This document shows, piece by piece, positions 15,624 to 48,614 of a stretch of DNA of 64,000 nt (the stretch's first letter is position 1; the number at the start of each line of letters is the position of its first letter). The DNA comes from Gammaproteobacteria bacterium (GTDB lineage: Bacteria; Pseudomonadota; Gammaproteobacteria; GCA-001735895): the NCBI GenBank assembly GCA_050298595.1, contig JBNKUM010000085.1, positions 1 to 64,000 on the forward strand, written 5' to 3'. Made by a program: the position numbers and the translations under genes. The notes under the pieces were generated by a model that saw nothing but the letters and a program-made list of their open reading frames with translations, did not search any database and was not told the origin of the DNA.

Positions 15624-16217
15624 TTAAACACTAACTTCATGCTGGTGCGATGCTGTCTCTGCATTCTGCTTATTCAGGATTAAAAATTTTAATCGAGTTT
15701 CATCCAGATTTGTACTGTGACCCAAATCCTGGCGCATTTTTTTAATCAGTTGCTGATACTGAGATGTTAGAGCATCCACACTCTCCCGATTCTGTATTGA
15801 CTGATCAAGCTTACGAAAACACTCAATAACTGCACTACCTGCAATCACATTGAGTTCGGCCGCTTTGGCCTGCAGCTTTAGTAAAGCATCCTGCTGCTGT
15901 GTTTTTACTCCTGCTTGTAGCGCAGAAAAATACACATCATAGACTTCAACCATGGCTTTATAAAGATCTATTTTGGTATCTGACAACTGAGCTTTTAACC
16001 TGGTTTGTGCTGCGGACTTTATGCCGCCTGAAATCAGGAAACAACCCAGCAGAAATACTGCAAACGAAGATAACAGGACCAAACGCAACGTCGTATCCAG
16101 TCCATCAAACAGATGCCAGATATATACAATCGCCAGATAGCCACCATAAAACAGCGCGGCAATAACTGATAGAACAAGGGTTACTACTATAAAGGTCGTT
16201 ATTGATTTCATTTTCAT
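15624..16217 (-). CDS. Two-TM membrane protein, last gene of the eCIS operon
   Basis: Two N-terminal hydrophobic helices and a helical soluble domain. Lies 76 bp after the nuclease gene on the same strand. Confidence 0.7.
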   Translation of the reverse strand: MKMKSITTFIVVTLVLSVIAALFYGGYLAIVYIWHLFDGLDTTLRLVLLSSFAVFLLGCFLISGGIKSAAQTRLKAQLSDTKIDLYKAMVEVYDVYFSALQAGVKTQQQDALLKLQAKAAELNVIAGSAVIECFRKLDQSIQNRESVDALTSQYQQLIKKMRQDLGHSTNLDETRLKFLILNKQNAETASHQHEVSV

Positions 16218-16293
16218 CTCCTGCTGGTTAGTTTTTCAGTGCATTGCTGACTAGTAAAAATATGGTATTGATTAAATTCATTTTCGTTAATTA

Positions 16294-19200
16294 CTAATTG
16301 GAAACTCTGTATAACAATACGTGCTTTCCAGATGTGGCGCGAATAGTGGAAGTATTAATACCCGGAACCAGCCGTTCCAGGGTTCCCCAACGCCTGATCG
16401 AATTGGACTGTTGTGCAGTTAATATCCTGTCTGCCATCTGATCATTAATACCATCCAGAGTCATCAATTGCGATTTGTTCATTTCGAGTAAATACACCTT
16501 CTCAGCAGGAATACCCACCAGATCATAACTGTTCAGGCTGGTACTAATGATATTACGTACGGTATGCCGACTGATCAGGTTACCGCGAGTTGGTGCAACC
16601 TCTACTGCACTGCAGTCGAGAGTAGTAGGTACTTTTGTTTCAGCTTCTATAACATCAGCAAGTACGGTATCACCAGTGGCTCTAAGATCTGCAACCTTAC
16701 CTGTCTGTAGACCAGAATGAGTTCCATATCTTGCGTTCACCACAAAGTCTATGGTTTTGTTATTCACATTCACCGCATCCTTTGCAAAACGCTCAAAATT
16801 CGGTTCGTGATCTTGCGTATTCGCGTATTGAGTAAGAGGTGTCAGGTTTCGCCAGTCATTTCCTGGGCCGCCCAGATTATTATTTAACAAGTGCCCTGCA
16901 ATATAATAAGACGTACCGCCCTGCCTACGAGCCTTTAAAGTTCTGAAGGTATTATTGCCATTCACATAGCCCTGATTTACTCCGGAACCGTTATTGTTTT
17001 TACTTAGCGTACTAACGCGTATACTGGATCCAAATCCTGCCGAAGTGGTACCACCATAAGAAGGATTAAAGCTGCCAGGCGCTGGTAGATCCAGGTCCGC
17101 CGTTAACACGGCCAGTTCATCGAGTTTAGCTGACAGAACAGTTTGGTCTGGCGGGTTCTGTTCGCTGGACTGACGAATCAACTGATCGATTTCAGTTGAT
17201 TTAGCCGTGGCAGCTGCTTTCGCTGCCTGTATATCAGCAGGTACCTCAAGACTATTCAGGTAGGCTGTGTAATACTGAGGCGTACTGCGCATCATCAACC
17301 TTGCACCTGTACCCTGTCCATCAAAGTAAAGAGTGTGTGTCTCTCCCCTGGCATTCCTGAATCGCTTGCGTGCGCGCCACCAGTTAACTACGGATGCAAC
17401 CGCATTACGGCCCATATTCAGCAGTGAGCTACCAGCGCTCACCGCTCTATCCACCAGCCAGGTCAACGCCCGATCCACCAGCCCTCTAACCCTTTCAATC
17501 ATTTCACCTATGCGTCGACCAATACCACTTAGCCCGACCTGATTGGCGAGAAACCCGATCGCTACCGGCATACCCTGGCTGAGAGAATTCTCCAGAAAAT
17601 TAGCGGCGTTCGTGACATTACCGCGCGCGATTTCTGCCACACCAACAACGAATGAATTGACGATCTCCAGCATTTCGCGCAGATAGCGGATAAAGGATTG
17701 CACCGCATTGTAAAAAGCAATAAAGCCATTCACCACGGCCATGATACCGGTGGGATCCAGCATACTGAGCAGGCGCACAGTGATACGTTCAACAATGCGC
17801 GTCATCACCCAGTTGCGCACCGCTTCCAGCACCGTACTCCACAGATTACTTAACCGCTCCTGTATGTATTCCCAGATAGCAATTGGACCGCGCGTAGCAA
17901 CATCCTTAACAAAGGTCCAGATGCCGGTCAGTCGATCGATCATGCCGCGAATACGTGCTACACGTTCTTCGCCGATACGTTCGGCCAGTTTTTGCCAGAT
18001 TCGTTCTACCGTAATGCCCAGCACTTCCAGCACAAAACCAAGTATTGAACGAAAGCTTAGATCCGTTGGTGGATTAATATTGGCATCGCGTAATTCTCCG
18101 AATAACCAGCCGGTTAACCCATTCAGCAGATGACGCAGGATATTGCCAAAGAATTGCTGGAACCCTGTCTTCACCGCCAGCAATAAATTCTTCAAAAAGC
18201 CGATAGGATCGCGCTTGATATCATCCATTGCCTGTAATGCTCGCGCGATAATGTTACGGATCAGACCGATAGGAAAATTCATTACTTCCATGATGACTTC
18301 GATCACAACCTTGATAATCTCACCAACAAAATTAATCAGACGCAGGATTGGCCCCGCAAAAATTGCCATCAATCTGGCAAAGGCTTCAAACGGTGCCGCC
18401 AGATCTGCCAGTGAAAAACTGTTCCAGGCGCGCGTAAATAGTCCGCGAATATACTCCCAGGTAAAATTCAACATCGCCATCGCTGCTTCAACGCGCGCGG
18501 TCATACGTGCTATGGCACCGCTTTGTTGCATCTCCTGAAACTGTTGCTCTCCATTTTCCATCAGGCTCATGAAACCTCGGATGATATTCGCGGTGTTGCG
18601 TTCGACCACTTCTTCAGAAAACGGATCCTTACCCAGAATGACCGTGATCAATGGATATCCCCTCACGGTTCGGGCATAAGCGACCAGACGATTGATCAGG
18701 GCATCCTTGATGAAACCAAGCACCTTGACAGCAATTTCAATGACGAAATTGATGATGCGCCCGACAGGAGCAGCAAAGATGTTATACAGCTGGCGAAAGG
18801 TTGCGGGTGGATTCAACAGGTTTTGAATGGTGACAAGATCCCAGGCCGCGCTAAAGGATTCGCGAATCACTTCCCAGGTGATATTGAGTCGGGCGACAGC
18901 CCCATCCAGCCAGTCGGCGGCGCGTTGCAGGCTGCCGCTTTCTTCCATCTGACGTAATTGTTCCTGACCACTATCAGTCAGCTGCATGAAGCCGCGCAAC
19001 AACGCAATTGGCGTTCGCTCCACGACTTCCTGGGAAATGGGATCGCGACCTAGAATTACAGTCATCAATGGATAGGCATTCGTTCGCTCGCGGATAAAAG
19101 AGATTAACGCAGATACGACGTAATCCTTAACGATCTGTAGGAGTTTAGCTGCCACATTGACCGCAAAACGACGCAACCTGCCTAAAGGTGCCAGAATAAT

Positions 19201-20547
19201 ATTCGACAGACGGCGCATTACAGTGGACAATCTGGTAGCGTCAGCAATAGTCAAACTGCTCCAGAAACTGGAGAACTGACTAGCAATCTCTGTGGGACTG
19301 AAATCCAGTTCCCTTATCTGTTCATCCAGCCATTGCGCAGCCTCGGCCAGTGCTCCTTCCTGTTCCAGTTTCTGTTTTAATTCAGCACCGTTGGGGATGA
19401 TATCGAGACCCGCTTCGATAAAGTTTCGCCCATTACGTTCAACATGCCGACCGGTTATTGGATCGCTGCCATACACCACGGTAAACAATGAGTACCCCGG
19501 CATATCACTGACAAATTCAGCCGCGCGTTCCTTGATATAATCTATGGCTTCACCGATAGTATCGCCTACCCATTCCACCGCACTGCTAACAGCATTAGAA
19601 ATCGCCGTGACTGGATTCCACCAACGTTGCACACGTGATGTGCTCGAGCTAATTTCTCGTTGCCCCGAAGATAGCCCACCACGTTGTTGGACCACATGAG
19701 TGGCTTCATGCGCCATCAGATGTAAATCAGACTGTGACTGCCCTTCACCCAGCCAGATATCATTTTTATGGGTAAAGGCACGTGCATTGATGGCTGCAGC
19801 AGCCTGATGTGCAGCACTATCCTCGTGTACACGTACCCCACTTAAGTCCGCACCTATACCTGATTCCAGCGTCGCCCTAACATCGGCTCTCAGCTGTGAT
19901 CCAGAAGAGGGAGAATTCACTGCCTGCGCCGCATTATTTACCGGCGCTACGCTACTTTTACTCTGTAATACTTCTTCATCATCCCTGTCAGCTTTGCGCT
20001 GTAATAAACGAGCCTGGACGGGCTCTTCCTCTTCTTCAGCTTGACGTTGAATCACCTTAGTCTGTACTGGTTCTTCCTCTTCTTCTGACTGACGCTGAAG
20101 TATTTTAGTCTGAAGGGGTTCCTCTTCCTGCTCTGACTGACGTTGTAACAATTTTGTCTGAACCGGTTCTTCTTCCTCGATTTGTCGTTGAAATAATTTA
20201 GTCTGTAGCGGCTCTTCTTCCTCTGGCTGGCGCTGTATCTCAGGTTCCTGTAATTCAGTTTCGCTTTCACTCTGTGTCTGAATTGCCTGGCTGGCAGCGT
20301 GCATATTGCTTGCGCTAACCGGAGAAATATCTGTCACCGATTGATTGGCAACAACCCGATCCGCCACACGATCCGCTTCCTGTTCGAAACGGTCATTGGG
20401 CTGACCAATCTTTATTTTAGGTTGAACGATTTGATGAATAGACGCCCGTTGTGCACGTAAGCGCGCACCTGGCACTGAATGGACAGAGGAATTTTTAACG
20501 CTTGAAGAAGACGTTGATTTTTTATCCTTTGCCGCGAAAGTTTTCAC
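16294..20547 (-). CDS. eCIS DUF4157 protein with long helical repeats, a C-terminal DNA/RNA non-specific endonuclease and HhH domain
   Basis: DUF4157 (VRVHED..A..INARAFT...LMAHEATHVVQQ), nuclease motif AGHLLNNNLGGPG..WRNLTPLT..N and HhH-like LMTLDGINDQMADRIL. GTG start. Confidence 0.85.
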   Translation of the reverse strand: MKTFAAKDKKSTSSSSVKNSSVHSVPGARLRAQRASIHQIVQPKIKIGQPNDRFEQEADRVADRVVANQSVTDISPVSASNMHAASQAIQTQSESETELQEPEIQRQPEEEEPLQTKLFQRQIEEEEPVQTKLLQRQSEQEEEPLQTKILQRQSEEEEEPVQTKVIQRQAEEEEEPVQARLLQRKADRDDEEVLQSKSSVAPVNNAAQAVNSPSSGSQLRADVRATLESGIGADLSGVRVHEDSAAHQAAAAINARAFTHKNDIWLGEGQSQSDLHLMAHEATHVVQQRGGLSSGQREISSSTSRVQRWWNPVTAISNAVSSAVEWVGDTIGEAIDYIKERAAEFVSDMPGYSLFTVVYGSDPITGRHVERNGRNFIEAGLDIIPNGAELKQKLEQEGALAEAAQWLDEQIRELDFSPTEIASQFSSFWSSLTIADATRLSTVMRRLSNIILAPLGRLRRFAVNVAAKLLQIVKDYVVSALISFIRERTNAYPLMTVILGRDPISQEVVERTPIALLRGFMQLTDSGQEQLRQMEESGSLQRAADWLDGAVARLNITWEVIRESFSAAWDLVTIQNLLNPPATFRQLYNIFAAPVGRIINFVIEIAVKVLGFIKDALINRLVAYARTVRGYPLITVILGKDPFSEEVVERNTANIIRGFMSLMENGEQQFQEMQQSGAIARMTARVEAAMAMLNFTWEYIRGLFTRAWNSFSLADLAAPFEAFARLMAIFAGPILRLINFVGEIIKVVIEVIMEVMNFPIGLIRNIIARALQAMDDIKRDPIGFLKNLLLAVKTGFQQFFGNILRHLLNGLTGWLFGELRDANINPPTDLSFRSILGFVLEVLGITVERIWQKLAERIGEERVARIRGMIDRLTGIWTFVKDVATRGPIAIWEYIQERLSNLWSTVLEAVRNWVMTRIVERITVRLLSMLDPTGIMAVVNGFIAFYNAVQSFIRYLREMLEIVNSFVVGVAEIARGNVTNAANFLENSLSQGMPVAIGFLANQVGLSGIGRRIGEMIERVRGLVDRALTWLVDRAVSAGSSLLNMGRNAVASVVNWWRARKRFRNARGETHTLYFDGQGTGARLMMRSTPQYYTAYLNSLEVPADIQAAKAAATAKSTEIDQLIRQSSEQNPPDQTVLSAKLDELAVLTADLDLPAPGSFNPSYGGTTSAGFGSSIRVSTLSKNNNGSGVNQGYVNGNNTFRTLKARRQGGTSYYIAGHLLNNNLGGPGNDWRNLTPLTQYANTQDHEPNFERFAKDAVNVNNKTIDFVVNARYGTHSGLQTGKVADLRATGDTVLADVIEAETKVPTTLDCSAVEVAPTRGNLISRHTVRNIISTSLNSYDLVGIPAEKVYLLEMNKSQLMTLDGINDQMADRILTAQQSNSIRRWGTLERLVPGINTSTIRATSGKHVLLYRVSN
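19960..20240 (-). repeat. Six tandem 15-16 aa acidic repeats (QRQxEEEEP[LV]QTK)
   Basis: Directly visible in the translation; two more units occur in the 20615..22375 protein. Confidence 0.85.
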
Positions 20548-20614: not shown

Positions 20615-22375
20615 TTACATCCGCCACAACCCCGGGTTAACACCTCCTTTTCGATACTCCTTTCTATATGTACTGTAAAATCCTGCATTGCCCTGGTACA
20701 TGGAAAACCACGGCCTCACATGCCCCGGGAATGCAGCATTAACTTCAGAAGTAACGACTGTCGTATCGTCTTTTGCTACCACCGTAGCCACATGAAATCT
20801 TGTTAATTCTTTTCTAACTGTCTGCCTGTTATTCCACGGAGACAGCACATTCTCTGCAACCGCTCCAGCGCCTGTTCCTCTAGGTGAAATATAATAAGCT
20901 TCACCAGGACGAAGATCATTTGCAGGTGCCAGGCCAATACCAGGCCTGCTGGTTGAATAGGAATCAGGTGTACGACCAGTTTCTCTGATCAGCGCTCTTG
21001 CATATTGCCCGCAATCACCGCCCAAAGCTTTTAGTCGTGTGATACCCAGACCATCTGTCCATTGCTTTGAATAATCGGTAAAGCTTGAGTTTGTCTGGGT
21101 GAAACCAGAAGCAGGAACCAGATTTGGTGCCAGAGCTAATCCGTACAGTTTAGTTGCATCGCCCCTGCCGTATACGTACTTTCGTAATGATGAGTAACGC
21201 CTGTCTGGTATATTTAAAAGATTGCTAACTGGAGCAAATGGAATATGTGCCTGCGCCAGACGGTTAGGCCCCAATGATGATGAAAACTGATCTGTCTCTC
21301 CCTGTGCGAATACGCTAATGCTACCCGAAGGTATTCCAGGTACACCTCTTGACGGCATCATTAATTCATACGCTAACGAATGCGCTCTGGCGCAGGATAG
21401 TGGCCAATTAATATCGGGGCCACCATCTATACTCGCGTAGCCATCAACTCTGATATGCTCAGTCCCTCCGCTGAAGTGCCAGTTGTTTACAAAGTTTTCG
21501 ATGGCACCAATACTGCCCGCTGAAAGTACACTACTATTAATGCCAAAATTAATATCAAGACTATACCCAGCGGGTGATGAATTGGCGATGGAACATGCCA
21601 TGGGAGGCGCTGTAAGCGGATCATTTTCCAGCTCATGGGTTACCTTTCGTTGGATACCTGATTCATGTCCTTTCTGCTGCACGACATGAGTTAATTCATG
21701 GCCCAACAATCGCTTACCTTCACTGGAGTGAGGTTGATATTCGCCAGCAGCAAAAGCTATATTATTCCCCATCGTGAAAGCACGGGCATTTATGGAACGT
21801 GAAAGGTCTGCTGCCTGCCCTCCCTGATGCACTCTTACCTGACTAAAATCTCGCCCGAAGCGTGATTCGAAAAACTGACTCGTCACGGGGTCCAGTGGCT
21901 GACCTCCGCCTTTAAGGCTTTTTATACCTGTCTCATTTGCAGTGCTTATCTGCCTGCCCTGCCCATTATTTTGCATAGCCTGAACAGGCTCTTCTTCCTC
22001 TTCTGACTGTCGCTGTAACAGTTTTGCCTGTAATGGCTGCTCTTCTTCCTGTGGTTGTTGCTGTAGCGCAGGATCCTTTAATTCTGCCTCGCTTTCAGAT
22101 TGTTTTTGCAGCGCCAGACTGGCTCTCGACATACTGCCTTTACTGATTGGTGTAATGTCTGACACAGACTGATTGGAAAGCACCCGGTCAGCCACACTGT
22201 CGGCTTCCTGTTCGAAACGATCATTGGGCTCACCAGTCTTTATGCTGGGTTGAACAATCTGATGAATAGAGGCCTGCTGGGCACGTAAGTACGCAACCGG
22301 AACTGAACGGGCAGAGATATTTCTATGCAGTGATGAAGAACTAAATCTATTATCCTTTTTCGCAAAGGTTTTCAT
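20615..22375 (-). CDS. eCIS DUF4157 protein with an OmpA-like domain and a C-terminal papain/CHAP-like domain
   Basis: DUF4157 (FGRDFSQVRVH...LLGHELTHVVQQ), OmpA-like INFG..S..L...VDGYAS.DG...NWPLSCARA, and C-terminal DCGQYA...FHVATVV...SEVN. Confidence 0.82.
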   Translation of the reverse strand: MKTFAKKDNRFSSSSLHRNISARSVPVAYLRAQQASIHQIVQPSIKTGEPNDRFEQEADSVADRVLSNQSVSDITPISKGSMSRASLALQKQSESEAELKDPALQQQPQEEEQPLQAKLLQRQSEEEEEPVQAMQNNGQGRQISTANETGIKSLKGGGQPLDPVTSQFFESRFGRDFSQVRVHQGGQAADLSRSINARAFTMGNNIAFAAGEYQPHSSEGKRLLGHELTHVVQQKGHESGIQRKVTHELENDPLTAPPMACSIANSSPAGYSLDINFGINSSVLSAGSIGAIENFVNNWHFSGGTEHIRVDGYASIDGGPDINWPLSCARAHSLAYELMMPSRGVPGIPSGSISVFAQGETDQFSSSLGPNRLAQAHIPFAPVSNLLNIPDRRYSSLRKYVYGRGDATKLYGLALAPNLVPASGFTQTNSSFTDYSKQWTDGLGITRLKALGGDCGQYARALIRETGRTPDSYSTSRPGIGLAPANDLRPGEAYYISPRGTGAGAVAENVLSPWNNRQTVRKELTRFHVATVVAKDDTTVVTSEVNAAFPGHVRPWFSMYQGNAGFYSTYRKEYRKGGVNPGLWRM

Positions 22376-22411: not shown

Positions 22412-24682
22412 TTATTCATAAACACAATGCAGGCTCCATGCGTTAAGACTACCGACATCTTTTGAATAAGTATCGACCACGCTTAAACGCCAGTTACCCT
22501 GAATTTCAGTATTTAACAACGACCTCATCGCTTCATTGGCCGTAGTGCTGTAGGTTTGCTTTATGTCATGCCGACTTTTACCACTGCGGTCGTGTAGAAC
22601 CGCCTCCACACCCGTTGGCGACTTCAAAACGACTCTTAGGTCACCTATCCATGTGTGAGAGATATCCACCTCTACATCCAACCTGAGTATACTTCCGCTT
22701 TCGTTTACCTGCAGCTCTCGGCTGATACCGTCTGGGTTTTTATCAGGGATCGGCAGTCCACTATCATCCGTCAAGGTAAACTCTTTTTTCACTGCCTTCT
22801 CTATCGAGAACTCGAGACTCCATTTAAGTAGCTTGCCGGTATCAACAGCCGCGTGATCGGATACCACTAGCTGCCATTCGCCCTGCACCTGATCACCTAA
22901 ATAAGCATTTAGTTCGGGTAAGGTCTGCAGGTTATAGGTAGTAGAAATATCATGTTGTGAACCACCTTTGCGATCATGCAGCACAACTGACTCTCCCTGA
23001 GGCGATGTTAGGATGAGGCGTAGATCACCGATGTAACTGTGCTGGATATCAACCTGAACCTTGAGTGCCTTGACCAAACCCTCATCTGCAATATTCAGCA
23101 CGCTCGATATGCCAGCAGGATTCATATCAGGAATAGCCTGATTAGGCGACACCTCGCGCCGGATCAATACAAAGTCATCTGCAGGGTCTCCTACTCCAAC
23201 AGCAGCCCAGGCGTTTTTCAGGCTGGCATACTCAGATCCGTTATCGCCATACAACTGTCTACAGGCGTTCAATATTGCGTAACGTGCCTGCATAAAGGTC
23301 CATCGACTATCGGTGCTGCTGTACAGATAATTCGTCATCGCCAGGTAGTAAATTTGCTCAACCTTCTCTCGTCCCAGCCCTTGTACACGAACCCCATGGT
23401 GACTACCCCCATCTACAGAAAGGTAGGCTGCCTTGTTTGGTATGCCACTGTTGGAATGCACGTAACCATTATCATTCTTGTTTGAATCGGGTTGTTCGTT
23501 GTCACCTAATGCCAGAAAGTCATCCATGTGGTCAGGTTGTCCATACAGAGCAGGATTGGACATATCCCGTAGCGCATCCCCCCCTCTGAAAGGCGTATAT
23601 ATGCCTTCACCTACTTCCCAATCTTCTATAGCACCGGAATTTGAGGCCATCACTCCAAAAAAATCAGCGAAGGATTCGTCCAGCGCTCCTGCCTGCTCAG
23701 CATAAATAAAACGAGCTGTGCGCGCAGTAACAGCATGTGTCAGCTCATGCCCAACCACGTCCAGTGCCAGTGACAATGGAGCAAAACGAAAGCCATCACC
23801 ATCTCCGTATACCATCTGTTTCAGATAATCTGTCCAGAAAGCATTGTTGTATTTTTCCTTATAATGCACAGTGGATACCAGATTAGCACCTTGGTCGTCA
23901 TAGCTATTGCGCCCAAAGGTATTCAGATAATAATCATGCACGATCAGAGCATTGTCGTGCGCAGCCTGAGCTACCGTGTCACTTGAGTTCTGATCATCCT
24001 GCAAGATCAGAGATGCCTTGAGATTATCTGTATTTTTCGCCGAATAGGTCAGACGTGAAGCAATGTCTTTCATGCGGCTGTGTTTCAACAAAAGACTTCC
24101 ATCATGGGCATCAATGATATGCAGACTGAAAGCCAACTCCAGCCTGCTAACCCACTCAACTTCCCATGCCAGATGAACCTTTCTGGATGAGTCTCGGTAC
24201 AGAATCAGGCGCGCTTTTTTCTCCAGTAGATCTTCCTTTGTTTTACCCGTATCGTGCAGCATAATGTCCAACGCCTGTTCTTCATCAACAAGAGGTTCAA
24301 GAGATACATCTACTGCATCAAGCCGATAATCCTTGTAGGCAACAATTTCCCCCTGAGGATTAATATGGACCTGAGTAGAGCCTTCATAAACAGGAATATC
24401 ATTTAATGATTGAGAAAAATACACATGACTATGTCCCTGTTTATCTATTTCATTGCTGACTATTTGCAAAGACTCTTTTAATCCATCCTGCAAATCCAGT
24501 AACTCGGGATTTTGCTGGAGAAAATCACGTGCGATAGTTTCCGATTTTTCAGATGTTTTCTGTGTTAGCTTTCCCTTGATGAATTTGGCACTTCCTGTTT
24601 CCTCATTCCAGAAAAAATCTACCGTCGAGTCCAGTTGACTCAACCTGTTTACGAGCTTTGACTGTTGATTATTCAGTTTCAT
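22412..24682 (-). CDS. M4 (thermolysin-like) metalloprotease with FTP/PepSY propeptide and two P-proprotein domains
   Basis: NNAFW, VVGHELTH, GALDESFAD and VHSNSG motifs, plus two 'V.VDI.H..IGDLR..L.SP.G' P-domains. Confidence 0.92.
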   Translation of the reverse strand: MKLNNQQSKLVNRLSQLDSTVDFFWNEETGSAKFIKGKLTQKTSEKSETIARDFLQQNPELLDLQDGLKESLQIVSNEIDKQGHSHVYFSQSLNDIPVYEGSTQVHINPQGEIVAYKDYRLDAVDVSLEPLVDEEQALDIMLHDTGKTKEDLLEKKARLILYRDSSRKVHLAWEVEWVSRLELAFSLHIIDAHDGSLLLKHSRMKDIASRLTYSAKNTDNLKASLILQDDQNSSDTVAQAAHDNALIVHDYYLNTFGRNSYDDQGANLVSTVHYKEKYNNAFWTDYLKQMVYGDGDGFRFAPLSLALDVVGHELTHAVTARTARFIYAEQAGALDESFADFFGVMASNSGAIEDWEVGEGIYTPFRGGDALRDMSNPALYGQPDHMDDFLALGDNEQPDSNKNDNGYVHSNSGIPNKAAYLSVDGGSHHGVRVQGLGREKVEQIYYLAMTNYLYSSTDSRWTFMQARYAILNACRQLYGDNGSEYASLKNAWAAVGVGDPADDFVLIRREVSPNQAIPDMNPAGISSVLNIADEGLVKALKVQVDIQHSYIGDLRLILTSPQGESVVLHDRKGGSQHDISTTYNLQTLPELNAYLGDQVQGEWQLVVSDHAAVDTGKLLKWSLEFSIEKAVKKEFTLTDDSGLPIPDKNPDGISRELQVNESGSILRLDVEVDISHTWIGDLRVVLKSPTGVEAVLHDRSGKSRHDIKQTYSTTANEAMRSLLNTEIQGNWRLSVVDTYSKDVGSLNAWSLHCVYE

Positions 24683-37759: not shown

Positions 37760-38061
37760 CCCCTATTACCTCCTTCTGATGCACGCGGTATCAAAATAGT
37801 GCTACCGATATTGTCATCCAGTGTCAGATCTGGACCAAACACGATTTCAGGATTAGCATCCAGAATGCGCCACCACTTGCGACTGTCGACATAAAAATAC
37901 TGTGCCAGCAAATCCAGTCGATCATCGGCCTTGACGATATACTCAATCACACCTGTTGCCTGACCTATTTCACGCGCTCTGCCTCCTTTAAATACAGGTT
38001 CCTGGCCATCCAGCCCGTTAAATGGTCTGACATTTTGATAGCGGTAACCTTTGCCAGCCAT
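37756..38061 (-). CDS. LysM/tail-X-like baseplate protein
   Basis: YIVKADDRLDLLAQYFY.DSRKWWRILDANP. Confidence 0.85.
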   Translation of the reverse strand: MAGKGYRYQNVRPFNGLDGQEPVFKGGRAREIGQATGVIEYIVKADDRLDLLAQYFYVDSRKWWRILDANPEIVFGPDLTLDDNIGSTILIPRASEGGNRG

Positions 38062-38767: not shown

Positions 38768-38997
38768 CGGCTTACTCCTGCTTGCGTGGTGATTAACTGG
38801 TTAACAATCATTTGTGCGATTTCATCGTCTGAAGTACTGGCCCGAATGTTTTGTGCAGAGATATTGACCACATCATTCGATACCTGACGAGATGGCGCCT
38901 GTTTTGCCAGTACCTTGCCCACCATGTGCGCGATACTGGCAGCACGGTGTTCAAAACCAGCAGGAAGTCGCATACGCAAACGATCAATCTGAATCAT
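38764..38997 (-). CDS. Small eCIS-associated hypothetical protein
   Basis: 77 aa starting IQIDRLRMRLP, with 4-bp overlaps on both sides. Confidence 0.7.
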   Translation of the reverse strand: MIQIDRLRMRLPAGFEHRAASIAHMVGKVLAKQAPSRQVSNDVVNISAQNIRASTSDDEIAQMIVNQLITTQAGVSR

Positions 38998-41455: not shown

Positions 41456-42765
41456 TACAGCCTCCTCAGGTATTGACGGCTCGCCATTGAAATGGATGGA
41501 CGAATCGATCTACCTGCTGACGTAGATACAGCCACTGGTTTTTCGATAAACACATCCACCTGACCAATCCTGACTTCTGCTGAACCCTGACTGATCCGCA
41601 CAGGGTTTCCTGGAGACTGTAAATCGGCATGTTGACTGGCCAGTTGATTAGCAACCATATTGGTGGTCTGGGCTGCCATCACCTGCATACCTGCTGTTTT
41701 ATCCGTTTGCTGTTGAACCTGTGAATCGAGATTATGTAGTCGTGCTTCGGTCACAGACTGCCTGGTTTCAGCTGACGGCATTTCTGATTGTGCTTTTTCC
41801 GCTAAGTGAAGATCAGGATTGCTCTGCACCTGCTGAGAGTCATGGTTACCAGTTTCTGTATACAGGGCTGTTGCGATATCTGGTGATACATTTTGCGCTG
41901 AGGTATCGGTCTCTTGCCCGCGACTGGAGTTCGTTTGCTGAGGATTGCTAGCTTCTGTATTAAGCCGACTATGCTTGAATTCAACTTCATTGAAGCTTTT
42001 GACAACAGAGTCCGTCGCCTTTAACTGGCTTTCATTCGACCCTGATGAAGTTACCTTTTCATCCGTGACCGACATTTTTGAAAATCCTGTATCGCTAGTA
42101 TCAAATGCTGACTCTCTAACCTCAGGCTGAATCGGGGTTTGTGTATTGCTGGACTGCTTAAGCTTTTTATCCTGCTTCTCCTGAATATATTTCCTGGCCC
42201 TGGCTGCTGGCATTTTTTGTGTAGGGAAATCAGTGGCTGGATCAGATGATAAATTCTTTTCTAATGACTGAGTCCGGACGCTGGATAAATCTGATGAATC
42301 CGCATTTATTTCACCCGGCTTCATTGAGACGCTGGGCAAATATGATTTAGATTGCGGAAAATCCTGATTGCGCTGAACCGGGGATGTGAGTGAGACCGGT
42401 TTAGCTGCTTTTTCACTCTGCCTGGTAATCTGCTGAGGTAAAACATGTTTGGCCTGATAAACATGACTGTTGTTTTTTTCTGGCCGTGAAAGTCGCTCCG
42501 ATTTAATGGCTTGAGTATCCCGTAAGTTGCTTAATTGAGATGACCGATGATGTCTGTCCAGAACTGGAGTATTCGAAACAATTGGGCCGGTTTGACTCTG
42601 CCTGGGCAACAGGCTATCGCTCTGTCTGCCTGAAGATTTCGCTAACATGTTGTCAGACGAACTGGTGACTGGCATTGGTACAGAAACACTGGCTGGGCTC
42701 GTATACGAACGTTGTAGGGACTTTGCAGGGCGGGCATCAGCTATTACAGACTTCAGAAAACCCAT
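41455..42765 (-). CDS. Largely disordered S/Q/T-rich eCIS protein
   Basis: Low-complexity centre with short ordered termini (MGFLKSVIADAR; EVRIGQVDVFIE). Overlaps the downstream gene by 1 nt. Confidence 0.7.
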   Translation of the reverse strand: MGFLKSVIADARPAKSLQRSYTSPASVSVPMPVTSSSDNMLAKSSGRQSDSLLPRQSQTGPIVSNTPVLDRHHRSSQLSNLRDTQAIKSERLSRPEKNNSHVYQAKHVLPQQITRQSEKAAKPVSLTSPVQRNQDFPQSKSYLPSVSMKPGEINADSSDLSSVRTQSLEKNLSSDPATDFPTQKMPAARARKYIQEKQDKKLKQSSNTQTPIQPEVRESAFDTSDTGFSKMSVTDEKVTSSGSNESQLKATDSVVKSFNEVEFKHSRLNTEASNPQQTNSSRGQETDTSAQNVSPDIATALYTETGNHDSQQVQSNPDLHLAEKAQSEMPSAETRQSVTEARLHNLDSQVQQQTDKTAGMQVMAAQTTNMVANQLASQHADLQSPGNPVRISQGSAEVRIGQVDVFIEKPVAVSTSAGRSIRPSISMASRQYLRRL

Positions 42766-42769
42766 TGTA

Positions 42770-43594
42770 CTAACCTGCGCTACCGCTGTGCGAAGAGCGG
42801 CTTATCAGTTGCAAATAGCGTCGGCGTTTTGTACGCGGCAAATCGAGGATTTCAGCTTCACTCCAGTGGTAGTGACTGGCCAGGGTATGAATCTCGTCGT
42901 AAAAAAAGTATTCATCCAGACCAATATTGGCGTAGTGATCCAGTAAGGCGCTTTGTTCGGTATGACACTCAGGGCAGCTAACCAGCAGACGATCACAAAC
43001 TGCGGGGGCAACCTCATCCAGCGCTTCGTCAATGGCCTCGATTTCAGCCTCGTTCAGCAAGCGAGAAAAGTCTGCATGCGGTGACTCGCCATTTACCGAA
43101 CAGATACATTGCTGCAACAGGGTGAGTAAAGCTTCATCCTCTGATATTTGTGAGATAGCCTGCTGATCCTGTCCATTGGGCACCCTGGCTTTTATATCCC
43201 AGTTTTCCAGATGTAATGAAACCTCAGGAAAGCTGTCACCAGCCGCTTTAACAGGTAACTCACAACGCTGTAATTCGACATCAAACGGCTCTCCACAATG
43301 ACCACAATCTACCTTCAGCCACATTTGCTCCCCGCCGAGTAAGGCAGCTAGCCGTAGCATTAGATACTGGCGGTCAGCCACAGTTAGACGAGATACGATA
43401 TCGGCATCCACTGCTGATTCACCAATTGCATCCAGCACCTGAGAGAGCACGGCTGTTACATAGGCAGGTCGATCCAGATTCGCTGCGGACTCAATCAGCG
43501 ATTGCTCAATACGTCCAGTCAAAGGCCGAAATCTGGCATTACGTTGAATGCATCCACCCTGTAGCAGGCCACCGGGAAGCTGTACTTCCATCAT
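42770..43594 (-). CDS. Tail assembly chaperone / gp26-like protein with two CxxC pairs and a DUF6760-like C-terminus
   Basis: RPLTG..E, LTVADRQYLML, CGHC, CPEC and EIHTLASHYHWSEAEILDLP...RRRY; follows the tube gene. Confidence 0.7.
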   Translation of the reverse strand: MMEVQLPGGLLQGGCIQRNARFRPLTGRIEQSLIESAANLDRPAYVTAVLSQVLDAIGESAVDADIVSRLTVADRQYLMLRLAALLGGEQMWLKVDCGHCGEPFDVELQRCELPVKAAGDSFPEVSLHLENWDIKARVPNGQDQQAISQISEDEALLTLLQQCICSVNGESPHADFSRLLNEAEIEAIDEALDEVAPAVCDRLLVSCPECHTEQSALLDHYANIGLDEYFFYDEIHTLASHYHWSEAEILDLPRTKRRRYLQLISRSSHSGSAG

Positions 43595-43612: not shown

Positions 43613-44122
43613 TCAGGATTCACTGGGTTCAGAGACTGCTTCATCACGGTCCCAGCCTTCATGCTCTAGCTTGATGGTCTGTATACCAACAGTATTGGTG
43701 GTGCCTGCATCGAATTCCGGCAAGGCCTGATACTCTGACACCCAGGCACGTTTCACCTGATAACTCATCGCCACCACACCCTGCAAATTCAACACATTGA
43801 TAACAATATCCTTACGGAAATTAACCAGCGACATGGCAGCATCGCCGTCTATGTTGTTGACCAGATTGGCCCATTGCTCGAATACTGGGTCATGGGTGAG
43901 TCCCTGCTCCAGTGTAATGGCTTCGTATTTGGTACCACCAGGCAGTTTACGCACATGGGTGGGATCACCTCCGGTACGCCAGTCGACGGCTTCGGTGGTT
44001 TTTTTCAATGCGCCCATTTTCCTCAGGCCTGCCACGGGCTGACCATCAATAAGAACCTGGAATTTAAACGTGCGATAGGGATCGTGACGATGCGCATTCG
44101 CGGGAAAGAGTGGTGCAGCCAT
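43613..44122 (-). CDS. Tail tube protein (T4 gp19-like, Afp1/5)
   Basis: DPYRTFKFQV, KLPG.TKYEAITLEQG and I.L.HEGW motifs. Confidence 0.93.
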   Translation of the reverse strand: MAAPLFPANAHRHDPYRTFKFQVLIDGQPVAGLRKMGALKKTTEAVDWRTGGDPTHVRKLPGGTKYEAITLEQGLTHDPVFEQWANLVNNIDGDAAMSLVNFRKDIVINVLNLQGVVAMSYQVKRAWVSEYQALPEFDAGTTNTVGIQTIKLEHEGWDRDEAVSEPSES

Positions 44123-44134
44123 ATCAATTCTCCT

Positions 44135-46516
44135 TTATTGCAGGTTGACTTTTTGCTGTATACGGACGATGACGAATTCAGCGGGTTTGAGTGGCGCAAA
44201 GCCGACTATGACAATGACCTGGCCTGCATCTATGTCACCCTGTGTCATGGTGTCTCCAAGACCGCAGCGTACAAAATAGGCATCTGATGCCTTCTCCCCC
44301 TGAAATGCACCGGCACGAAAAAGGCCATTCATAAAATTGCCAATATTGGCTCGCAGAGAAGACCATAGCCGATGATCATTCGGTTCGAAAACGGCCCACT
44401 GAATACCATTGAAGATACTTTGCTCAATCATAATTGCGGTACGACGTACAGGAACATAACGCCATTCGGGATCGGCTTTGGTAGCCAGTGTACGTGCACC
44501 CCAGATCACCCTGCCACCGCCTGGCATATTCCTGAAACAGTTTACGCCCAATGGATTGAGCTGGTCCTGCTCTCCATCTTCCACCTTATATTTGAAATCA
44601 GCGACTCCGAGCAGGCCGGTACCCATCCCAGCTGGCGCCTTCCACACACCTCGCTTACCATCTATGCGTGACCACATACCTGCGGCAAATGATGAAGGTG
44701 CGACATCAATGGTCTTATCGGCCGTTGGATTTTTTTCAGCATGGTATAAGGGATTGGCAACCTTGACCCAGGGGTAGTACAACACCGAGTAGGTAGATGA
44801 TGGCAGGGCCAGTCCATTCACCGTTGCCGCCTGATCCAGTTCCAGTGATGGCGGTGGGTCAACGATTAGGACACGACTCTTAACCGCCTGACAATGAGCC
44901 AGTGACGCACTCAGAATAGCATTGCCACTACCATCAGAAGCCCAGTATTCGCCAGGATTTAGCAAGATACTGACGTCACGAACCTTGCGTAAAACACTGT
45001 CGTAAAAATCGGTAAAATCATTGGCTGTGGCATCATTTTCCTTGCCATCCAGTAATGCCACACCCTGCTCGTTGAGACCCAGTGTCTGTAGCGGTATTAC
45101 CCGGTAAGTACCCTGCGAGATAGAACGCCCCACCGTTGTTGCTGCACCGCTTGTAGTATCCAGTTTTAACACGCCCCCCAGTGATGCAGCATCTACCGAC
45201 AGATCTGACGTGCGAGCAGAAGCATTTCCGGATGTCATCCTGAACTTGCGATTCGCCAGTGTGCTATCGTACAGGTATTCACATTTGAAATCCTTGTAAG
45301 CAGCTATTGCAGGATTCAATGCCTGTACTGCATTCTGGATCGCTGCAGCAATATTTTCTCCGTCACTTTTATTATCACCAGAGAGATCGATATTCGTTGT
45401 ATCCAGAGTGATTGTTTCCGACCCATGCTTATCTATTTCGAACGTTAGTGTCATCTGGCCGGTTATATTGGTATCAAAATAGCTAGCATTAAAAGAACCT
45501 CCATGACCCAATAGCACCGCAGGTTGTTTTGAATCCATTCGTAATAAAGCTGCTAGCGTGCCATCGCTCACCTCTATCGAGGCCGTTGACTTTTCATCTT
45601 CATCGGATGGTTCAGCAGAACTCAACACAAACTTGTCTGTACTGAAAACACAGCTAAAGCCCTGATAAGCATCTTCGGTGCTCAGAGCTCGTACTGCCTT
45701 CTGGATTTCAGCTGCCAGAGAGGCTGCATCATCGGCATGGGCGGTACCGAGGAGAGGAGTTGTGAAATTTGATGGCGTTAGCGTTATAAGCTTTGCCCCC
45801 AGGCTATTGATATTCAGGGTCAGGGTAACAGGTCCAGTTATCGCTGCAGAATAATAGGTATTATCAGTAGCATCCAAAGCACCACCGCTCAAGCTAGCTG
45901 CCTGATATTGTTCATCCACAGAATCAGCAGGATCGGCAGATTCCTCCAGTGAAAGCTCTACATAACTGGAGTTACCGTTCACACGATCCAGCGCATAGTT
46001 ATCATCTCCAGCCCTCATGGTCAGCCCAGCAAAGCTTTCGTCACTGATAAACTGTCCTTTTTCCATATGACCAATTTCGAGATCGAAACTGAGTGAATCC
46101 TGATCCGCTTTAACGATTCGGTAGTACAGCTTATTGCCCCAGTCGCCTTTACTGGATGCAGAAATTCTGAGTACTGATTTTGCAGTCTGTGCTCCAGTTG
46201 TCCCCTGCAGGGTTCCCTGACCTTTAACCGCTGAGCTAGCTGCTGCTGATCCAGCACCGGCCAGCCGACAGATATAAGCAGTTTTACCACCATTCAGGTA
46301 AAATGCCTGCACGGCCAGACCCATAGCATCTTTTTCTGAAGCTATGTCGCCATATTCATTATTGTAATCATCGAAACTCTGGATCAGTCTGGCTTCACCA
46401 ACCGGTCCCTTAGTTGCCTTGCCAACAAAAGCTGCGACCGATGTCGCCACACCCTCTATTGGCCTTGACCCACTTGGAATTTCTTCTATATAAACACCAG
46501 GATGTAAATATGCCAT
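44135..46516 (-). CDS. Contractile tail sheath protein with a large inserted domain
   Basis: YLHPGVYIEE, RGVWKAPAG, WGARTL, WRYVPVRR, WAVFEPN and APLKPAEFV motifs. Confidence 0.95.
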   Translation of the reverse strand: MAYLHPGVYIEEIPSGSRPIEGVATSVAAFVGKATKGPVGEARLIQSFDDYNNEYGDIASEKDAMGLAVQAFYLNGGKTAYICRLAGAGSAAASSAVKGQGTLQGTTGAQTAKSVLRISASSKGDWGNKLYYRIVKADQDSLSFDLEIGHMEKGQFISDESFAGLTMRAGDDNYALDRVNGNSSYVELSLEESADPADSVDEQYQAASLSGGALDATDNTYYSAAITGPVTLTLNINSLGAKLITLTPSNFTTPLLGTAHADDAASLAAEIQKAVRALSTEDAYQGFSCVFSTDKFVLSSAEPSDEDEKSTASIEVSDGTLAALLRMDSKQPAVLLGHGGSFNASYFDTNITGQMTLTFEIDKHGSETITLDTTNIDLSGDNKSDGENIAAAIQNAVQALNPAIAAYKDFKCEYLYDSTLANRKFRMTSGNASARTSDLSVDAASLGGVLKLDTTSGAATTVGRSISQGTYRVIPLQTLGLNEQGVALLDGKENDATANDFTDFYDSVLRKVRDVSILLNPGEYWASDGSGNAILSASLAHCQAVKSRVLIVDPPPSLELDQAATVNGLALPSSTYSVLYYPWVKVANPLYHAEKNPTADKTIDVAPSSFAAGMWSRIDGKRGVWKAPAGMGTGLLGVADFKYKVEDGEQDQLNPLGVNCFRNMPGGGRVIWGARTLATKADPEWRYVPVRRTAIMIEQSIFNGIQWAVFEPNDHRLWSSLRANIGNFMNGLFRAGAFQGEKASDAYFVRCGLGDTMTQGDIDAGQVIVIVGFAPLKPAEFVIVRIQQKVNLQ

Positions 46517-46636: not shown

Positions 46637-46885
46637 TTAACCCTTTTCCGGTTTCAATGCCTCTTTCAGGCTATAAAAAGTCTCCCGGTTTGGATTAATA
46701 TTTTTTGAAACCTTACCTTGCTCGGCCAGTTGTTCGAGTGCCTGTTCTACCAGGTTTTTATTTTTCATAATCGATTGCTGCATCAGCCACCAATGCATAA
46801 CGCCTTCCAGTGAGTCAGACGCCATGGGTCGCTTTTGTAGATACTCCATTATTTCTGCAGCGATTGTGTTTACATCATCATCCAT
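46637..46885 (-). CDS. Small winged-helix-like protein, first gene of the eCIS operon
   Basis: EIMEYLQKRP.ASDSLEGV.HWWL...VEQALEQL...G.V....FYSL pattern; sits between the sigma54 promoter and the sheath gene. Confidence 0.72.
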   Translation of the reverse strand: MDDDVNTIAAEIMEYLQKRPMASDSLEGVMHWWLMQQSIMKNKNLVEQALEQLAEQGKVSKNINPNRETFYSLKEALKPEKG

Positions 46886-46925
46886 AAACTCGACACATAA
46901 CCTTTAGTTAACAGGGTCTCTACAA

Positions 46926-46941
46926 TGCATCAGATGTGCCA
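46926..46941 (-). promoter_or_regulatory. sigma54 (-24/-12) promoter of the eCIS operon
   Basis: The minus strand reads TGGCACATCTGATGCA (GG-N10-GC), 40 bp upstream of the first ATG. Confidence 0.8.
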
Positions 46942-46969
46942 TATTCCATATTTTTAAATAAATGGTTTA

Positions 46970-46982
46970 AAACACATTGATA
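46970..46982 (-). promoter_or_regulatory. IHF-like site
   Basis: TATCAATGTGTTT, one mismatch to WATCAAnnnnTTR, in AT-rich DNA between the promoter and the enhancer palindromes. Confidence 0.4.
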
Positions 46983-47028
46983 AAGGGGTTCCTGTAGTCA
47001 TAGTGAACTCAAAGAAGAATCCTTAATC

Positions 47029-47132
47029 TGAGGCAAAAAAGCCTCACTATAAATTGAAGTACGAGTTAACAGGCTGATGGAGCGAGTTTTATTGCTACCG
47101 ATATTTATTCTTGTTAGGGCAAAATAACCTCA
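47029..47132. promoter_or_regulatory. Two 18-bp enhancer-like palindromes
   Basis: TGAGGC-AAAAAA-GCCTCA (47029-47046) and the related TAGGGC-AAAATA-ACCTCA (47115-47132). Confidence 0.6.
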
Positions 47133-47151
47133 CCACCCGGCACCAAAGTGC

Positions 47152-47176
47152 AAAAAAAATCGGCGTAACGCCGATT
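47152..47176 (-). terminator. Rho-independent terminator of the activator gene
   Basis: AATCGGCG-TTA-CGCCGATT followed by a T run on the minus strand. Confidence 0.8.
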
Positions 47177-47201
47177 GATATCCAGAACATGGAAAGTTAG
47201 T

Positions 47202-48614
47202 TTATTTTGATATTTCTACATGACCAACATGAGCCTTAGCAGCTGTTAATAACCCATATTTTTCCATCAGCCGAGTAAACGATCTACGCTCTTTACCGGC
47301 AATACGAGCGGCTTCAGAGATGTTACCCTTAGCCTTATCCAATACACTAACCAGATAACGTTGTTCAAAATCTTCGATAACACAGGACTTGGCCTCTACC
47401 ATAGGTTGAGACATCAATCTATGCAGACGGCGGTCTCCATTAAAAGCTCGTCTTTCACGCTTTCTGGTTTCCAGCTCATCAATATAGATATATTTCCCTT
47501 CCGCCATCAAAAACTCTCGATGTAGCGTATTCTCAAGCTCTCTTACATTGCCTGGCCAGTCATGGTATCTAAGTGCCTCCAGCGAACCAGGGTGTAGTGT
47601 TCTCTCTGGCTGATCATACTGAAACTGCAATTGACGAATAAAATGTTCTGCCAGTAACTGGATATCCCCACTGCGCTCTCTTAGCGGTGGTAACAGAATA
47701 TTAATCAGGTTGATTCGATAGAAAAGGTCTTTACGGAACTCACCTTGTTCAACCATCTCTGCAATGTTTTCATTGGTTGCCGTAATAATCCGTACATTGG
47801 CTTTTTTAGCGGCTTTACTACCCAGGGGGCGGTATATCAGGTTTTCCAGAAATCGTAACAATACTACCTGCCCTCTAGCTGACAGGGTTTCAATTTCATC
47901 CAGGAATAAGGTGCCGCCATCGGCCTGACATATTAAACCGTTGCTACTTGCTGACGCATCGGTAAAAGCACCCTTCTCATGTCCAAACAACTCATTTTCA
48001 ATTAACTGGTCGGGTAATGCGCCACAGTTAGTAGCAATAAAGGGCTGATCTTTTCTGGTGCCCAGATAATGAATCGCACGCGCAACTAGCTCCTTACCGG
48101 TTCCAGTTTCACCATCGATATAAACAGGTGCATCACAGTGCATAATTTTATGTATTTTTTTAAGTACCTGCTGGAACCCTGGTGAATTTCCGATCAGTTT
48201 CATTTGTCTGAAAATATTGACATCAACTGCTTCGCTGGAAAAATCTCGATATATCAATTTACCCAGCCGATAATCCAGTTCGTTGGTTTCACAGGGAAAG
48301 GTCTCGATTTCATTACAGGCTTTGACTATTTCAGGAATGAACAGCGGGGTTTTCTCTGCAAATAACCCTAATACTGGTATGGCAGGATCCAGTTTTAAAA
48401 TATCAATAGTGTCTGATTTACACTGGTTTTTTTCAGTAAAGAGCAGTATAAGCGCTATTATGCTACCTTCACTCATTAACTTATCCAGTAGTATGCGATT
48501 TTTTACAAGATGAATATTCAGGTATCCGGCATGCTCCAGCATCAAAGAGAGTTGCTTGTCGTCTGCTGAGCTGGCGTTTGAATAAATGATTATTTTTTCT
48601 GCCTGACTTTCCAT
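47202..48614 (-). CDS. sigma54 enhancer-binding protein with a degenerate receiver-like N-terminus
   Basis: GETGTGKE, ENELFGHEKGAFTDA, LFLDEI, WPGNVRELEN and a C-terminal GNISEAARIAG HTH. Confidence 0.92.
   Translation of the reverse strand: MESQAEKIIIYSNASSADDKQLSLMLEHAGYLNIHLVKNRILLDKLMSEGSIIALILLFTEKNQCKSDTIDILKLDPAIPVLGLFAEKTPLFIPEIVKACNEIETFPCETNELDYRLGKLIYRDFSSEAVDVNIFRQMKLIGNSPGFQQVLKKIHKIMHCDAPVYIDGETGTGKELVARAIHYLGTRKDQPFIATNCGALPDQLIENELFGHEKGAFTDASASSNGLICQADGGTLFLDEIETLSARGQVVLLRFLENLIYRPLGSKAAKKANVRIITATNENIAEMVEQGEFRKDLFYRINLINILLPPLRERSGDIQLLAEHFIRQLQFQYDQPERTLHPGSLEALRYHDWPGNVRELENTLHREFLMAEGKYIYIDELETRKRERRAFNGDRRLHRLMSQPMVEAKSCVIEDFEQRYLVSVLDKAKGNISEAARIAGKERRSFTRLMEKYGLLTAAKAHVGHVEISK

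Follow-up and report, generated by a model that had tools for sequence, protein, structure and literature searches.

The 64,000-nucleotide stretch analysed here (the window) comes from a genome that is 98.6% complete (G000), and a contig of the same genus suggests that the host is probably a member of the Gammaproteobacteria. It carries, on the minus strand from 48614 to 15624, an intact injection-syringe locus of 22 genes, which is almost certainly an extracellular contractile injection system (eCIS; CIS for the wider class). An earlier note on this DNA had described about 21 co-oriented, mostly overlapping genes. All 21 of these open reading frames (ORFs) are confirmed, and a 22nd had been overlooked: a 77-aa ORF (38764-38997) with homologues at the same position in three related loci (L022, L025, and L026). 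The wording on overlaps was too strong, since with homologue-supported starts the genes overlap at 8 of the 21 junctions (9 of 21 if the listed GTG start of the fibre gene is taken). The junction distance is 40 bp or less at 17 of 21, and all operon frames are open. The activator gene is set apart by 316 bp that contain a terminator-like hairpin. The features are listed below with their coordinates in the window, strand, and, in brackets, the basis of the assignment.

47202..48614, minus: sigma54 enhancer-binding protein, 470 aa (Pfam, alignment, tree, reverse profile search)
47158..47176, minus: terminator-like hairpin after the activator gene (consensus scan)
47115..47132, no strand: upstream dyad 1, putative activator site (sequence)
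47029..47046, no strand: upstream dyad 2, perfect palindrome TGAGGC-N6-GCCTCA, putative activator site (sequence)
46926..46941, minus: sigma54 -24/-12 promoter, TGGCAC-N5-ATGCA, one mismatch to consensus (sequence)
46637..46885, minus: 82-aa winged-helix-like protein, first gene of the sigma54 operon (PDB profile matches)
44135..46516, minus: sheath, 793 aa with insertions (Pfam, PHROG, comparison with solved sheaths)
43613..44122, minus: tube, Afp1/5-like (Pfam, NCBIfam)
42770..43594, minus: T4_baseplate/DUF6760 protein, gp26-like (Pfam, PHROG)
41455..42765, minus: 436-aa low-complexity, poorly conserved protein (no family match; 26% identity in L022)
40310..41455, minus: cap/terminator, Pvc16_N (Pfam)
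38994..40313, minus: Afp15-like AAA+ ATPase, Walker A and B intact (Pfam)
38764..38997, minus: 77-aa conserved small ORF (homologues in relatives)
38090..38767, minus: tube initiator, CIS_tube (Pfam)
37756..38061, minus: LysM/tail-X-like baseplate protein (weak match)
36641..37759, minus: gp27-like hub, first half of a split Afp8 (weak PHROG 52; position and synteny)
35817..36638, minus: gp5-like spike, H-x-H at its end (Pfam)
35414..35806, minus: gp25 wedge protein (Pfam)
34237..35421, minus: baseplate J copy 1 (NCBIfam, PHROG)
30635..34240, minus: baseplate J copy 2, 1201 aa (Pfam, NCBIfam)
28473..30638, minus: Tail_P2_I-like fibre adaptor, Afp12-like (E 0.0035, under cut-off)
24710..28486, minus: DUF6519 (eBAP5) tail fibre, distal half variable (Pfam)
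22412..24682, minus: M4 metalloprotease with propeptide and two P-domains (Pfam)
20615..22375, minus: cargo 2, with loading N-terminus, DUF4157, OmpA-like region, and Cys-His-Glu papain-like C-terminal domain (Pfam, alignment)
16294..20547, minus: cargo 1, Tme-like, with loading N-terminus, DUF4157, tape-measure-like helical trunk, and EndA-type tip (Pfam, PHROG)
15624..16217, minus: protein with two transmembrane helices (2-TM) and a four-helix C-terminal domain, last gene (model and topology)

Pfam matches above cut-off cover the sheath C-domain, Phage_sheath_1, gp19 tube, T4_baseplate, Pvc16_N, AAA with WHD, CIS_tube, Phage_base_V, gp25, Baseplate_J, DUF6519, two eCIS_core domains, Peptidase_M4, and Sigma54_activat. 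Other matches are weaker: PHROG 52 for the hub (E 3.7e-4), TIGR02243 for the second baseplate J protein (E 7.8e-22, under cut-off), Endonuclea_NS_2 (26.2 bits for a cut-off of 27), Tail_P2_I, OmpA (E 1.5e-4), and LysM. The core backbone families of dbeCIS (PMC6899500), namely Afp1/5, Afp2/3/4, Afp7, Afp8, Afp9, Afp11, Afp15, and Afp16, were all found with Pfam, NCBIfam, or PHROG, which upholds the eCIS identity proposed earlier. The 436-aa protein may possibly be a ruler or a chaperone. As the earlier note had stated, there is no match to capsid, terminase, integrase, TssJLM, ClpV, holin, or endolysin among the 52 ORFs of the window searched against Pfam and the 21 ORFs of the locus searched against PHROGs. 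Small hydrophobic ORFs were considered as hidden holins and rejected: all 11 short candidates overlap longer called ORFs or fall outside the operon.

The head of the locus looks like a dedicated sigma54 switch. The activator has an AAA+ core with a GAFTDA loop, a Fis-type helix-turn-helix (HTH), and a degenerate receiver-like N-domain, and the features expected of a sigma54 enhancer-binding protein are present together: the GAFTGA-type loop, the HTH, a -24/-12 promoter, upstream dyads, and RpoN, which is encoded in the genome. The N-domain has no Pfam match at E<=1, Response_reg included. Inspected by eye in 14 full-length alignment rows, it is receiver-like without the conserved acidic pair, phospho-Asp, and Lys that mark an NtrC-type response regulator. 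Because these phosphorylation residues are missing, the activator probably responds to a ligand or a protein and not to a kinase.

The promoter is conserved among relatives. We anchored 26 loci on the gene for the 82-aa protein and dropped two for a mismatch in the anchor motif. Of the 24 scored loci, some of which are near-copies (L035/L036, L038/L043), 20 carry a box with two mismatches or fewer at 87-147 nt upstream of the anchor. Across 500 shuffles, the box occurred on average in 0.15 and never in more than 2 of the 24. Similar dyads occur in L029, L037, L039, L041, and L081, with a pair spacing of 86-90 bp where two exist. Within the genome itself, dyad and box occur together only at this locus (1 of 27 dyads at one mismatch), and a stringent search found no sigma54 box before a second eCIS on contig C101 or in the interval scanned on contig C26, which holds a type VI secretion system (T6SS). 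We also considered a wider regulon that would include an unlinked lysis gene, and discarded it when the stringent search for dyad plus box matched the window locus only.

The activators linked to such loci form a clade. The motif GA[FY]T[DG]A is present in 16 of 17, and the 17 make up one side of a 100/99 branch that separates them from 17 other activator cores of the same genome. With a profile of the activator, 400 genomes (at most four candidates scored per genome) gave 12 matches of at least 450 bits, the next one scoring 412. Eight of the 11 non-self clade members are linked to a CIS, and of the 18 next-best activators, not one lies within 1.5 kb of a CIS or winged-helix gene. With the conserved box, the upstream dyads, and this clade, the dedicated activator claimed by the earlier note is upheld, and it very probably controls the operon through sigma54.

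The first product of the operon, the 82-aa protein, has no Pfam family, and its Atlas clusters are unnamed, although the family comprises 2931 representatives at E<=0.001 and 50% clustering. Its PDB profile matches are eS25, Hop2, cullin, MarR, FadR, and ArsR proteins, most of which we take to be winged-helix proteins. A plasmid search gave no match. In nine metagenome loci, the activator lies upstream in seven and a sheath or Pvc16 gene downstream in seven, the misses being contig ends. Among 399 other genomes of the class, 11 had the gene; the activator adjoins it in 8 of 11 and an eCIS gene follows in 7 of 11 (7 of 10 and 6 of 10 when the unpublished genome G068 is left out), the others being followed by a T6SS sheath (one), PEP-CTERM genes (one), or an unresolved context (two). 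In 300 other genomes of the phylum of Desulfopila, we found 10 loci in 8 genomes, with the activator in 4 of 10 and a confirmed eCIS gene in 4 of 10; one locus there has activator and box with no structural operon. We give somewhat better than even odds that the winged-helix protein is regulatory.

The module is found before machines of different types: clade Ib eCIS, several lineage-II eCIS types, and one T6SS. On a sheath tree with 25 members and no named references, it requires 7 changes, and its clustering is no tighter than in shuffles (92 of 500 as low), the call of "no module" being uncertain for L017, L021, and L026, where the upstream sequence is short or disrupted by insertion sequences. 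The same-genus genome G004 has the module at the same site (left flank 88-93% identical in DNA, activator 76%, gene for the 82-aa protein 62%), and its structural operon differs (sheath 42%, tube 59%, four DUF4157 genes). These comparisons suggest that switch and syringe are exchanged independently of each other. We propose, tentatively and at somewhat less than even odds, that a two-gene sigma54 switch that was unrecognised before (a clade of pseudo-receiver activators plus a winged-helix feedback partner) acts as a portable controller, which at least two phyla would place before unrelated injection machines (eCIS Ib, lineage-II eCIS, and T6SS) and which would answer to a non-kinase signal.

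Some individual loci deserve mention. One contig (L078, L079, and L105; G476:C77) carries two eCIS, one Ib and one of lineage II, each after a winged-helix gene and box; the pair share one activator, and an array of DUF4157 genes and fragments lies between them. In L069 (G303:C1), the module precedes a T6SS whose first ORF fuses TssB and TssC domains in one frame. In L142 (G320:C65), the activator is separated from the box and winged-helix gene of the eCIS by some 5 kb that appear to be pieces of RuBisCO, LysR, and AAA genes. In the Accumulibacter locus L021 (394-4067), transposase-like ORFs, not the module, lie upstream of the sheath.

Several observations weigh against a dedicated, portable eCIS switch. 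The outgroup of the activator tree was drawn from a single genome, and 7 of the 11 non-self clade members were rows of the training alignment; only two of the four new members are linked to a CIS (those of G425 and G320 front eCIS, those of G177 and G384 have no CIS nearby). In the Desulfopila phylum, 5 of the 10 matches are weak and have neither activator nor CIS genes, and in G162 the module precedes PEP-CTERM genes. The close operon relatives L018, L019, L020, and L025 have no module beside the sheath, which means that the module is not required. The PEP-CTERM case of G162 and the activators of G177 and G384 would fit a different view, in which activator and promoter are real but the 82-aa protein is no partner of the activator; it would instead co-regulate by binding DNA or help in assembly, and the module would serve as a general switch of a "surface or social programme". 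Such a view is also consistent with G425, where activator, box, and sheath are present with no winged-helix match, and with the MarR, FadR, and ArsR regulators among the PDB profile matches. However, the 82-aa gene directly follows the box in nearly all strong matches, before varied eCIS and an unrelated T6SS, and most members of its family are neutral or acidic (61 of 105 net negative), which would be less typical of DNA binders. We regard this view as rather unlikely, and keep to a sigma54 switch dedicated to the injection machine.

The machine itself belongs to a known type. Subtype IIa has been defined by two afp11 copies, a split afp8, divergent afp12 and afp13, and no afp14 (PMC6899500; here and below, papers are cited for the available parts of their text). 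The locus has two afp11 copies and a split afp8, divergent afp12 and afp13 in the form of the weak Tail_P2_I and the DUF6519 proteins, and no afp14. The split hub and spike, which the earlier note took as a novelty, belong to this published definition together with the two baseplate-J genes (PMC6899500). A PAAR gene (afp10) is usual in the subtype according to the same source. None was found here: the gap between spike and gp25 is 10 bp, and the PAAR protein of C101 has no match in the window; nor does the CIS_TMP protein of C101 match anywhere in it. Because of the missing PAAR gene, we file the locus as a IIa-like, PAAR-less variant.

The spike may instead form its own tip. The H-x-H ending is present in 6 of 6 members examined of this sheath clade, and three more distant relatives (3 of 3) have shorter spikes without it. 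The H-x-H motif is known from phage spikes as a metal-bound tip. Among solved sheaths, 8bky, 8bl4, and 9ezm match best (267-281 bits, compared with 148-185 bits for Pvc2, Afp3, All3325, and 7adz), and 8bky and 8bl4 are presumably from Streptomyces CIS. The 9EZM entry is mentioned once in the paper on the Halogeometricum borinquense system (PMC11566945). The DUF6519 fibre corresponds to the catalogued eBAP5 fibre anchor (PMC12923769). By gene content, the predicted machine is a PAAR-less IIa-like member of a known lineage. Syntenic copies are found in Desulfopila sp. IMCC35006 and in an Accumulibacter metagenome-assembled genome (MAG), with tubes 95-96% identical and DNA 64-77% identical (68-77% to Desulfopila over most of the operon), and these similarities indicate that the machine has moved between phyla. 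The structural locus and its cargo are ordinary for lineage II, and both the machine and the cargo architecture are catalogued.

Three cargo candidates had been put forward, and the two DUF4157 proteins hold as candidates. Their polar N-termini are 40-42% identical, and the Afp15-like ATPase is probably their loader, by analogy with Alg15; in AlgoCIS, loading that depends on the N-terminus and the ATPase has been demonstrated (bioRxiv 10.64898/2026.05.27.728243). The third candidate, the M4 protease, is weak, with neither DUF4157 nor the shared loading N-terminus. Its HELTH motif is intact and no signal peptide is apparent by hydropathy. All 4 related loci read lack it at this position, and so do 40 of 40 genomes of the family at a threshold of E 1e-60. 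We discarded it as a core cargo in favour of a locus-specific insert, and that it is loaded at all seems doubtful.

Cargo 1 (1417 aa) combines DUF4157, a trunk with tape-measure similarity (PHROG 58, E 1e-17), and a C-terminal EndA-type domain, the last of these just under its cut-off, and the nuclease cargo proposed earlier is upheld as a sequence-based prediction. This combination is that of a Tme-like protein: the Tme of Streptomyces davawensis has the same architecture (PMC11126660), and Sle1 is a related effector (PMC13277306). Blocks over residues 274-1055 are 83-96% identical, per block, to the Desulfopila copy, and the tip varies among Desulfopila, Accumulibacter, G044, and G001. A comparison of the nuclease tip with the PDB gave no match.

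The target of cargo 2 is less clear, and the cell wall named by the earlier note is not established: CHAP, deamidase, and protease readings all fit the Cys-His-Glu papain-like motif. In the C-terminal domain, a Cys, a His, and an E-x-N motif are invariant across 11 of 11 sequences; the domain sits behind differing N-terminal modules and has no Pfam match at E<=1. Its model is poor (pLDDT 47), with weak matches split among endolysin, AvrPphB, Josephin, and Cif folds; the fold search gave no significant match, the top VIA row being an unrelated chain, and in the PDB profile search, annexins brought in by other rows of the alignment prevailed. In P0179-P0181, the domain also follows DUF4157 and annexin-like repeats, a hint that some relatives may act on membranes or on eukaryotes. 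The loci of Desulfopila, Accumulibacter, and G044 have no cargo 2 at the corresponding position.

Taken together, we read the locus as an intact subtype-IIa-like eCIS under a dedicated sigma54 switch, with a probability of about 0.62 given evidence drawn from sequence comparison. The activator, made from its own transcript, would bind the two dyads 90-190 bp upstream and open the sigma54 promoter. The winged-helix protein, as the first product, would be a regulatory partner of the activator and not a part of the particle. The Afp15 ATPase would load the two DUF4157 cargoes via their shared disordered N-terminus. A subpopulation of cells may then lyse by an unlinked route and release the particles, which would bind through the DUF6519 fibre, pierce with a spike that forms its own tip, and bring in a cysteine hydrolase and a nuclease, the latter carried on a tape-measure-like trunk that inserts into the membrane.

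The absence of a lysis cassette holds, but it is no novelty as the earlier note had it, since the lack of a lysis system is a defining trait of the class (PMC4122934). An alternative to release, which the lack of lysis genes in the locus would suit, is that the particle works inside its producer. In the manner of CisA or Hbor_38620, the 2-TM protein would dock the particle on the inner membrane; the particle would fire outward or into its own envelope, so that nuclease and hydrolase cause programmed death and DNA release and the syringe is its own lysis device. The 2-TM gene ends the operon after a DUF4157 gene in G000, G001, G041, G042, and G082 (and weakly in G044, where the match to a 169-aa gene has a probability of 8.6%), and is conserved while the toxin tip changes. 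Membrane factors are required or implicated in Streptomyces coelicolor, whose CIS needs CisA (PMC12237407), in H. borinquense, whose IIa system is membrane-docked (PMC11566945), and for SalCIS (bioRxiv 10.1101/2025.06.01.657177), and Tme promotes the release of extracellular DNA (PMC11126660). The best-studied lineage-II systems act inside, or docked to, the producing cell (PMC11126660, PMC12237407, PMC11566945), which tells against our main reading. So does the lack of a phage lysozyme (PF00959) in the genome, and so does the fact that the gaps of 36-76 bp between the cargo genes hold no ORF for immunity.

On the other side, the 2-TM gene was not found in eight fetched loci (those of G045, G004, G141, G320, G476, G010, G007, and G299), and its model (pLDDT 77) is a helical hairpin with a four-helix bundle that has only generic matches. 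It has two transmembrane helices, compared with one in CisA and six in Hbor_38620. The operon retains a full-length fibre with a variable distal half, and in a diderm host the outer membrane would have to be crossed as well. The tail fibre argues for release, and the terminal 2-TM gene keeps membrane docking possible. Action inside the producer is in our view unlikely, though a serious alternative, and extracellular action of the eCIS is slightly favoured. We also asked whether the 2-TM gene encodes an anchor, a holin, or a defence protein of a known kind, and rejected these options for lack of a significant Pfam, NCBIfam, PADLOC, Foldseek, or VIA match; a role as cognate nuclease immunity is disfavoured because the gene tracks the operon and not the toxin tip.

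Readings of the locus as the tail of a defective prophage or a tailocin, or as an accessory to the T6SS that borrows TssJLM from C26, are very improbable: there is a canonical T6SS with TssM in the genome, and sheath, tube, and baseplate match phage families, but Pvc16_N, the Afp15-type ATPase, CIS_tube, DUF4157, and DUF6519 are eCIS markers, the frames are open and conserved at the nucleotide level with Desulfopila, head, packaging, and lysis genes are absent from the locus, TssJLM, a TssB/C-type sheath, and ClpV (T6SS i-iii) are absent from the window, and an R-type tailocin would have a holin/endolysin cassette and no AAA+ loader (contrast from PMC4122934).

The genome has three contractile systems. 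The second eCIS (G000:C101:142452-165202) has Pvc16, one sheath, two tubes, a fused VgrG, PAAR, CIS_TMP, an ATPase, a 650-aa membrane protein with a PG-binding match, and a DUF4157 gene; the canonical T6SS (G000:C26:25000-54000) has TssM, TssB/C, Hcp, a ClpV-like protein, and VgrG. Away from the latter, a lone 514-aa ORF with a T6SS VipA-like region (G000:C94:171262-172806) lies among housekeeping genes. In the window, sensor/EAL gene fragments of 81 and 104 aa (49539-50258), probably a pseudogene, lie between the activator and a tRNA-Gly; a tRNA-anchored island was rejected, as no att repeat of the tRNA-Gly ends was found. Convergent on the operon end, a three-gene unit (12943-15582) encodes an FAD/NAD/2Fe-2S reductase, a membrane protein, and a multiheme cytochrome c, and is kept at the same site in G001 and G004. 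At 321-3886, another sigma54 activator, of XylR/V4R type, is divergent from an aldehyde dehydrogenase gene with its own -24/-12 box at 1896, and falls outside the CIS-linked clade. Two NosL-like genes, a thioredoxin-like protein, and an ABC/FtsX transporter occupy 53371-58296.

A sigma54 switch (activator, promoter, and small partner) placed before many unrelated injection machines is apparently undescribed, as far as our sequence comparisons define it. A full-text literature search, which left most subscription papers and bioRxiv supplements outside its range, listed no paper whose entry describes the module, and the word "sigma" does not occur in the main text of PMC8213781, PMC10598620, PMC12210884, or PMC4122934. 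The supplement of the 2021 study PMC8213781 lists Sigma54_activat 49 times in eCIS operons of 4 phyla (odds ratio 1.59, false discovery rate 0.04), for example in Pelobacter propionicus, Lysobacter, and Solimonas, which tells against full novelty, as these genes may include members of our clade; the eCIS regulators named in the available text of that study are GerE, BTAD, and RfaH. According to a 2023 review (PMC10598620), the regulation and induction of eCIS loci without lysis cassettes or conserved regulators are unclear. The window locus offers a promoter with candidate operator sites, a named activator, and a gene for its partner, all of them recurring across phyla and machine types, and therefore makes eCIS induction testable. 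If the controller is indeed portable, activating the switch would turn on silent eCIS clusters. Induction would also open access to a lineage-II particle from a diderm, of which the literature searched gave no characterised example, and such particles would decide between release and docking.

Among known systems, the locus is close to the IIa members of dbeCIS, including the H. borinquense CIS (PMC6899500, PMC11566945), with which it shares two afp11 copies, the gp27/gp5 split, divergent afp12/13, the lack of afp14, DUF4157 cargoes, and the lack of lysis genes. Unlike them, it has no PAAR gene, a diderm host, and a sigma54 module, and its terminal gene has 2 TM, compared with the 6-TM anchor in H. 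borinquense. The N-terminal domain of the fibre and the upstream Tail_P2_I adaptor are like those of eBAP5 (DUF6519) fibres (PMC12923769), whereas its distal binding domain has no family match. As in the S. davawensis CIS (PMC11126660), the largest cargo joins DUF4157, a helical tape-measure-like region, and an EndA-type nuclease, and the clade is scattered over distant phyla. Tme lies upstream of the baseplate genes in a system with a PAAR-like tip, whereas cargo 1 lies at the 3' end; its tip is polymorphic between relatives and has the motif IAGH where Tme has DRGH, the likeness being one of architecture and not of direct alignment. Like AlgoCIS with Cgo1 and Cgo2 (10.64898/2026.05.27.728243; PMC8894135, also for the clade context), the locus has two cargoes with a disordered N-terminus followed by DUF4157, and an AAA+ loader. 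AlgoCIS belongs to clade Ib with a fused VgrG and a TMP gene, a type represented in this genome by the C101 locus and not by the window locus. The control module, finally, is comparable to VasH-type control of the T6SS by sigma54 and a bacterial enhancer-binding protein (bEBP), and differs from it in its degenerate receiver-type input, its linked winged-helix gene, and its targets, which are mostly eCIS. The likeness lies in the principle: in the VasH type, too, the gene for an enhancer-binding protein adjoins a contractile system, and its product switches on a -24/-12 promoter.

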